IMG/VR virus record: IMGVR_UViG_2531839667_000017
Coordinates: 1 to 41,654 of that record
Strand: one strand, 5' to 3'
Source: a virus
Lineage: Duplodnaviria; Heunggongvirae; Uroviricota; Caudoviricetes
DNA: 41,654 nt
In this document: piece by piece, positions 24,972 through 25,668 of the stretch
Layout: each line of letters opens with the position of its first letter
How positions within the stretch are numbered: position 1 is the first letter of the stretch
The notes under the pieces: generated by a model
Database searches by the model: none
What the model was told of the DNA's origin: nothing
The model's input: the letters and a program-made list of their open reading frames with translations, nothing else
Position numbers and translations under genes: made by a program

Positions 24972-25144
24972 TTCCTCGCACGATGTCTTAGCCACCGGAT
25001 ATCCCACAGGTGAGCCGTGTAATTGAAGGTTTTTACGTCAGATTCTTTTGGGATTGGCTTGCGTTTATTTCTGTAGCGTTTCGTTGGAAGGTATTTGCAG
25101 TTTTCGCAGATGATGTCGGTGATACTTCGTCGTTGTCGCCTCAT
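24968..25144 (-). CDS. ninE: NinE
   Basis: 58 aa from ATG 25142-25144 ([23 protein letters not shown]...); lambda NinE-like. Confidence 0.8.
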
Positions 25145-25668
25145 GCCGCCCTCCTGACGCCCTGCCCGATCGCTATCAATGCCGCTTTGGATACGGTAGT
25201 AAACATCCGTCGAGGACTGATGAACGGTCGCCAAATCAGCAGCATGGAGCCTTTGCTGTTTCCCTTCTTCTCCAGCCCTGTCGATGGTTCGATAAAATTA
25301 ATCCGTCCATCAGTGATAATGCGAACTTCGTCGACACTCTCCAGAGCCTTGCTGAACCATCCGACAGACATATCCTCTGGCACAAGCATCACTACCGTCT
25401 GTCGTTGTTGTATGCACTGCTCAGCGGCTTTTTCCACCCACGGCCTGATATTGCTGTACGGTGGGTTATTCCAGATTGCACCGTGGCTTATCCACTCAGA
25501 ATTTAGCGCGTCGTCAGCCTCAGTTAGCCAGTGAGCGCACAGAGCATTTTTGTCGCTCGCTGCCGAATCCAGCCAGAATCCAAACTCAATATCCAGTGCA
25601 TCAAAAAGCCAGAGCGGCGTTTGCCAGCAGTCCTTGTCGTGTGATGGCGTATTTGATTTGATAGTCAT
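25141..25668 (-). CDS. phage DNA N6-adenine methyltransferase (Dam family)
   Basis: 175 aa from ATG 25666-25668; WQTP and NPPY motifs typical of phage N6-adenine methyltransferases. Confidence 0.75.

Follow-up and report, generated by a model that had tools for sequence, protein, structure and literature searches.

The closest described relatives of the gene considered here are carried by lambdoid phages of Escherichia coli. For M.EcoVT2Dam of the Shiga toxin (Stx) prophage VT2-Sa a GATC target is stated in PMC6602927, citing Radlinska & Bujnicki 2001 (PMID 11720311), and the M.EcoVT2 and M.EcoGV homologues are given by the same report as distinct genes on one Stx2 prophage. In phage Phi24B the 'dam' coding sequence (CDS) CM2 (17559-18086, 528 nt) was given as 100% identical to the VT2-Sakai protein and HK97 as 99% identical, with the same type of gene; CM2 was among the CMAT genes that were tied there to the lytic cycle, with a significant change of expression upon induction (PMC3342100). 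More distant members of the family have been characterized experimentally. M.Phi93DAM of a lactococcal 936 phage, in which NPPY is the sole classical motif, produces G6mATC as determined by single-molecule real-time (SMRT) sequencing and DpnI/DpnII digestion (PMC4190342), and the Staphylococcus aureus prophage enzyme PamA, which has an NPPY active site, makes DNA sensitive to DpnI, active-site mutants losing GATC methylation (PMC12435837). Here we analyze a gene of this type in a 41,654-nucleotide stretch of DNA (positions 1 to 41,654 of IMG/VR record IMGVR_UViG_2531839667_000017, hereafter the window), which is a lambda-like E. coli prophage whose flanking gene ybhC is 99.6% identical to that of E. 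coli. The explanation that best accounts for the data, and that we consider very probable as a whole, is that the gene encodes an intact orphan N6-adenine methyltransferase specific for GATC and lacking a target-recognition domain, which is expressed in lytic growth and tops up the methylation of phage DNA.

The original prediction described an open reading frame (ORF) of 175 amino acids with WQTP and NPPY motifs, placed between ninB and ninE with ATGA overlaps on both sides, and read it as an orphan phage N6-adenine methyltransferase of the Dam family within the nin region. Translation of 25141..25668 gave exactly such a protein, with both motifs; the ORF lies on the minus strand, which had been left unstated. 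The overlaps were likewise as described, and the two neighbors were identified by their Pfam matches (Table 1). The plus-strand sequence 'tcat' at 25665..25668 reads ATGA on the minus strand and joins the ninB TGA to the methyltransferase ATG, and the same sequence at 25141..25144 joins the methyltransferase TGA to the ninE ATG. A weak GGGGAG lies 10 nt upstream of the methyltransferase ATG, and a strong AGGAGG Shine-Dalgarno sequence, located within the 3' end of the methyltransferase gene, lies 5 nt upstream of the ninE ATG. A GTG start at 25728, giving a protein of 195 amino acids from a frame overlapping ninB, was rejected because homologues and family profiles begin at the ATG. The junctions are consistent with tight packing and with translational coupling of the methyltransferase gene to ninB and ninE; they are general across lambdoid nin regions and so nothing special to the methyltransferase (PMC8022706).

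The protein matched Pfam PF05869 ('DNA N-6-adenine-methyltransferase (Dam)') over profile positions 1-167 of 169 with 217 bits (cut-off 28.1, E = 1.8e-64), the NCBIfam equivalog TIGR01712 ('phage N-6-adenine-methyltransferase') over positions 1-165 of 165 with 261.9 bits (cut-off 97.05, E = 1.6e-78), and PHROG 111 ('DNA methyltransferase') at 3.1e-87. The family is large: searched exhaustively with HMMER, representatives of clusters formed at 50% identity gave 8813 clusters with E <= 0.001 and 2395 with E <= 1e-10. When the window protein was aligned with 68 relatives at 33-79% identity (69 sequences), the columns of T17, D34, N68, P70 and R122 were invariant and those of P18, A37, W59, P69, Y71, L95, W104, F125 and N137 were conserved in at least 90% of the sequences; the window protein has the conserved residue at all of these positions. 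By its place in a Rossmann-type methyltransferase fold, D34 is probably the acidic residue that binds S-adenosylmethionine. The window gene is an intact, full-length phage N6-adenine methyltransferase gene. Larger versions of this otherwise minimal enzyme were also observed: the proteins P0141, P0142, P0149, P0157 and P0241 (500-690 amino acids) are multi-domain forms in which a large N-terminal region is followed by a C-terminal domain of PF05869 type that shares 45-51% identity with the window protein.

The term 'Dam-family' holds for the function of the enzyme, GATC being its reported target, but not for its ancestry. A Pfam scan of the protein at E up to 0.01 found PF05869 as the sole family, with no match to canonical Dam (D12 class) or to MT-A70. 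The canonical, alpha-class Dam enzymes (E. coli Dam, T4 Dam and DpnM) share with the window enzyme the reaction, the reported GATC target, a Rossmann-type core and an (N/D)PPY loop, but no sequence homology was detectable between the two types and their folds match weakly. Canonical Dam also has a separate DNA-recognition domain. The window methyltransferase is not a homologue of canonical Dam, the name referring to the reported target only, and the reported GATC specificity of the two types is convergent. Homologues from T1-like phages are 32-36% identical to the window protein, and we take coliphage T1 Dam and Haemophilus phage HP1 Dam to be members of PF05869/TIGR01712.

The AlphaFold2 (AF2) model of the methyltransferase (25144..25668) consists of one compact alpha/beta domain and is of high confidence (predicted local distance difference test, pLDDT, 95.4; predicted template modelling score, pTM, 0.91). 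All 175 residues belong to this single domain, without a separate target-recognition domain; D34 ends the strand formed by residues 31-34, and NPPY directly follows the strand of residues 64-67. The best Foldseek match among solved structures was the catalytic domain of PCIF1/CAPAM (E = 2.7e-5, TM-score relative to the query, TMq, 0.60, 14-15% identity). PCIF1 carries an NPPF motif. The next matches, CamA and E. coli Dam, which like PCIF1 are N6-adenine methyltransferases, were far weaker (TMq about 0.35-0.45, E about 0.02-0.09); E. coli Dam structures compared with the model gave TMq 0.33-0.35 and E 0.03-0.09 over approximately 115 aligned columns, and METTL3-METTL14 structures matched it poorly (probability <= 0.25). 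Sequence searches of the PDB with the window protein and with the 69-sequence profile revealed no related solved structure and returned chance matches only, namely SdiA, a DHH protein and Med31 (via the string 'WCNPPYS'), which were discarded as not being relatives. Group-2 N6-adenine methyltransferases, which include PCIF1, have an N-terminal helix and degenerate helices or elements around strand 3 (Iyer et al., PMC4738411), and assignment of the window methyltransferase to this group fits. PCIF1 itself is a eukaryotic mRNA cap enzyme whose solved constructs span about 470-490 residues, and its likeness to the window enzyme is limited to the catalytic core.

The window enzyme most likely methylates the adenine of GATC, a specificity taken from the literature on a near-identical orthologue and on distant relatives. 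The orthologue is VT2-Sakai orf32, which has the same length and is identical at 172 of 175 positions (98%), the differences S9A, I60V and I165M all being conservative, and which likewise lies between homologues of ninB (nin146) and ninE (nin60). Orf32 is most likely M.EcoVT2Dam, because M.EcoGV, which from our reading of PMC10810198 appears to be an MT-A70-type enzyme, and M.EcoVT2 are listed as separate genes on one prophage. The same slot between ninB and ninE is occupied by the Phi24B 'dam' and by the gene of phages 434, mEp043 and mEp213. The window prophage is nevertheless a different mosaic from VT2-Sakai, with a lambda-type integrase at ybhC, YbcO and RusA among its nin genes and no stx seen in the window. 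M.Phi93DAM and PamA resemble the window enzyme in being small, in having NPPY as sole classical motif, in lacking a partner nuclease and in their reported product, N6-methyladenine (m6A) in GATC, but they differ in host and in genome position, which in the 936 phages is the packaging module. The lactococcal homologues are approximately 33% identical to the window protein, and one 936-group tblastn match is a member of PF05869. In hosts without Dam these distant members create a new mark, whereas the mark of the window enzyme would duplicate that of host Dam.

Another type of methyltransferase found in Shiga toxin-producing E. coli (STEC) is distinct from the window enzyme. The MT-A70-type enzymes M.EcoGV and M.EcoPA8orf6770P (with PNB-2) are also prophage-borne and annotated as GATC enzymes, often on the same prophages, but they have a DPPW motif in place of NPPY and are encoded at another locus. 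The MT-A70 enzyme of phiPA8 is gp5, which is co-transcribed with the upstream gp6 and gp7, depends on a partner subunit and has 16S rRNA as its preferred substrate; GATC methylation in vivo is described for a similar protein of an O104 Stx phage (PMC10810198). The Stx-prophage '16S rRNA methyltransferase' was rejected as a counterpart of the window gene because of its MT-A70 type with DPPW, its other locus and its partner subunit (PMC10810198).

On the minus strand the gene order is cII-like, O-like, P, terminator, orf70, ninB, methyltransferase, ninE, ninX, ninF, orf70, ybcO, rusA, ninH and Q. The methyltransferase gene is the third of the nin cluster and has the features of a nin-region gene, namely a place after the replication genes and ahead of Q, on the strand transcribed from pR, and tight packing with ATGA overlaps. 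No restriction endonuclease family was found among the flanking genes from P/O to Q, so that the orphan status claimed for the enzyme stood. A promoter scan found 8 sigma-70-like sites against 10.9 expected from shuffled sequence, none of them placed to drive the methyltransferase gene alone. The hairpin that follows P is the positional equivalent of lambda tR2, and by analogy with lambda would act as a terminator suppressed by N. No NinG-family match was found among the nin ORFs scanned, and the region carries YbcO and RusA, an arrangement closer to that of DLP12 or phage 82 than to that of lambda. The two 70-aa ORFs (phrog_6308 and phrog_3973) bracket the cluster.

By the same analogy, the methyltransferase gene would be transcribed from pR as a delayed-early gene that needs N-mediated read-through of the terminator after P, and would be translated after ninB and before ninE through the stop/start overlaps. 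The enzyme would then be made after induction or infection and be silent in the repressed lysogen. Host Dam does not keep pace with fast lambdoid replication, so that phages lacking a gene of this kind have virion DNA methylated at only part of its GATC sites, and a phage GATC methyltransferase would top up the methylation of replicating phage DNA. Progeny DNA methylated at every GATC would be protected from m6A-sensitive restriction enzymes that cut this site (DpnII/MboI type) and would not be handled by MutH as unmethylated. In lambda virion DNA only about half of the Dam sites are methylated (PMC3299994), and the virion DNA of both P22 and lambda is under-methylated by host Dam (PMC8022706). 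The dependence on N and the selective benefit of the methyltransferase are both inferred.

GATC avoidance has been reported in enterobacterial phages. A Markov model predicts approximately 200 GATC sites for the window, which contains 112 (ratio 0.56); CTAG was also low (0.47), and CCGG and TCGA were slightly over-represented. GATC avoidance persists in this prophage, which carries its own presumed GATC methyltransferase, and this shows that the gene has not relaxed the avoidance.

Several points weigh against a GATC methyltransferase that acts in this way. A GATC methyltransferase looks redundant in Dam+ E. coli and the window is still poor in GATC, so that any selective benefit is no more than presumed. 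The equation of orf32 with M.EcoVT2Dam, and not with the MT-A70-type enzyme of Stx phages, is a matter of argument. A different protein of Stx phages, likewise annotated as an adenine methyltransferase for GATC, prefers 16S rRNA (PMC10810198), and for this reason annotation alone is no proof of substrate. Finally, the nearest solved fold is that of an RNA cap methyltransferase. We also attach a low probability to the proposal that the enzyme reads its target in a way unlike that of Dam, T4 Dam and DpnM, for instance by dimerisation or through the loop of residues 35-63 between strand 1 and strand 4, and/or that it has extra substrates. Candidates for the latter may be single-stranded replication intermediates, non-GATC adenines at high expression and, as the PCIF1 fold hints, RNA.

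It is quite unlikely that the enzyme is instead an epigenetic regulator of the lysogenic-conversion type, expressed in the lysogen and changing the expression of host genes or stabilising lysogeny as PamA does in S. aureus. PamA, a prophage enzyme with NPPY, is a GATC methyltransferase that increases virulence and the expression of fnbA (PMC12435837, PMC13076061), and the Phi24B Dam protein was detected by an antibody screen in lysogen cultures, its authors speculating that it supplements host Dam (PMC3342100). However, S. aureus has no Dam, so the PamA mark is new there, whereas in E. coli GATC is already methylated and a second enzyme would add little new information. The quantitative PCR pattern of Phi24B was reported as lytic-cycle-linked, that is, arising from spontaneously induced cells (PMC3342100). 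In STEC methylomes the homologues of the window gene gave no extra motif and could not be separated from host Dam (PMC6602927), because the motif expected of them, GATC, is already methylated by the host enzyme. The absence of a new motif would not refute the annotation, since a Dam+ host already methylates GATC and a lysogen probably does not express the gene. Given the position of the gene, in the delayed-early operon of pR and past a tR2-like terminator, and the lytic-cycle pattern reported for Phi24B, protection or processing of phage DNA in lytic growth fits better than regulation of host genes in the lysogen.

It is very unlikely that the enzyme acts on another substrate or with relaxed specificity (on non-GATC adenines, single-stranded DNA or RNA), which would make the label 'Dam' misleading. 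The single 175-residue domain without a target-recognition domain could be taken to suggest this, as could the best-matching solved fold, an N6,2'-O-dimethyladenosine (m6Am) RNA cap methyltransferase, but the PCIF1 match is limited to the shared catalytic core at 14% identity. The precedents, too, come from other families: the mis-annotated Stx-phage 'GATC' methyltransferase acting on 16S rRNA (PMC10810198) is an MT-A70 enzyme with DPPW, and among the non-specific prophage adenine methyltransferases (PMC3299994) Hia5 has DPPY and FxGxG. A link of the window enzyme to non-specific Hia5/Hin1523/Nma1821 or M.EcoGI/GII was dropped for this reason, Hia5 also having a divergent recognition domain (PMC3299994). 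On the other hand, GATC specificity is reported (PMC6602927) for the orthologue that is 98% identical, and two distant small NPPY members, M.Phi93DAM and PamA, were shown experimentally to be GATC-specific. It is scarcely credible that the gene is inactive, a remnant that travels with the nin module: an IS21-family insertion in the pL operon may mean that the prophage is decaying, and nin genes are non-essential in lambda, but the frame is full-length with every conserved family position intact, just 3 conservative differences separate the protein from VT2-Sakai orf32, the AF2 model is of high confidence and hundreds of functional phages retain the gene at 95-99% identity.

The GATC methyltransferase gene is already known, named, routinely annotated and extremely common, and its presence in the window is an ordinary find. 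Copies of the 528-bp gene with 95-99% nucleotide identity occur in 244 phage records, including 434, mEp043, mEp213, lambda-like isolates and many Stx1 and Stx2 phages, and where its neighbors are named in those records they are ninB and ninE. It is present at an identity of at least 95% in 1566 (about 29%) of 5426 complete E. coli genomes, as many as 5 times in one genome, and RefSeq annotates it in E. coli as 'phage N-6-adenine-methyltransferase'. At 28-47% identity, more distant homologues are found in no fewer than 1640 additional phage records, from Klebsiella, Vibrio, T1-like coliphages, Lactococcus and others. A literature search joining Dam methyltransferase, ninB and phage found no paper.

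Table 1. Methyltransferase gene of the window, its motifs and other features of the prophage
Feature	Position	Strand	Basis or remark
Phage N-6-adenine-methyltransferase CDS (M.EcoVT2Dam-type, PF05869/TIGR01712)	25141..25668	-	Translation: 175 aa + TGA stop
WQTP motif, residues 15-18	25615..25626	-	N-terminal helix before strand 1; sequence, 69-sequence alignment
LDSAAS segment, residues 33-38	25555..25572	-	End of strand 1; alignment and AF2 strand 31-34
NPPY catalytic motif IV, residues 68-71	25456..25467	-	Straight after strand 64-67; sequence, alignment, AF2
ninB/orf (recombination mediator), upstream neighbor	25665..26105	-	PF05772 1.1e-54; PHROG 72
ninE, downstream neighbor	24968..25144	-	PF05322 NinE 6.2e-43
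O-like replication gene	27810..28709	-	
P, DnaB-type helicase	26384..27835	-	
Terminator-like hairpin and T-run, just past the P stop, before the nin cluster	26331..26355	-	10-bp stem, 5-nt loop, TTTTTATT tail
70-aa ORF, first nin-cluster gene after the terminator	26086..26298	-	PHROG 6308 3.7e-54; no Pfam match
70-aa ORF, second, between ninF and ybcO	24240..24452	-	phrog_3973
YbcO, putative nuclease	23957..24247	-	PF07102
RusA, Holliday-junction resolvase	23598..23960	-	
Q	22793..23416	-	
252-aa ORF between Q and lysis genes	21797..22555	-	phrog_1521 (unknown function) 2.1e-154; no Pfam match
Rz-like spanin	19785..20234		
205-aa Rha ORF	19018..19635	-	Rha (Phage_pRha) and ORF11CD3 domains
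N gene, intact	31533..31877	+	
IS21-family element (istA, istB)	33271..35072	-	istA 340 aa, rve and helix-turn-helix (HTH) domains; istB 260 aa, IstB_IS21 9.9e-112
recT	35125..36108	+	
241-aa ORF upstream of int	37619..38344	+	Weak LprI (lysozyme inhibitor) match 2.3e-05
Lambda-type integrase, next to ybhC	39166..40236	+	

Some further features of the prophage lie outside the nin cluster. The IS21-family element stands on the opposite strand within the leftward (pL) early operon, between N and recT; in related E. coli prophages istA and istB are annotated as IS100-family. The insertion may block expression of the recombination genes, xis and int and leave the prophage defective in excision, and the pR operon with the methyltransferase gene is untouched by it. 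The 252-aa ORF, which looks like a multi-pass membrane protein, occupies a 'moron' position that is the stx slot of Stx phages. The Rha ORF, of antirepressor or regulatory type, lies between the spanin and terminase genes, the accessory slot after the lysis cassette, and the LprI-like ORF is possibly a lysogenic-conversion or accessory gene.

As a discovery the locus carries little weight, and the questions that it leaves, the benefit of the enzyme in Dam+ hosts and the way in which it recognizes its site, are family-wide and not specific to this locus. The gene is invisible in methylome studies of lysogens unless a dam- background is used, and what leads phages that infect Dam+ hosts to retain a second GATC methyltransferase, not homologous to that of the host, has been called poorly understood (PMC7556043). 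Extra substrates, if true, would give the enzyme a function in the lytic cycle beyond duplicating host Dam. The recognition of a 4-bp site by a 175-residue enzyme without a recognition domain is a structural problem for the whole family.

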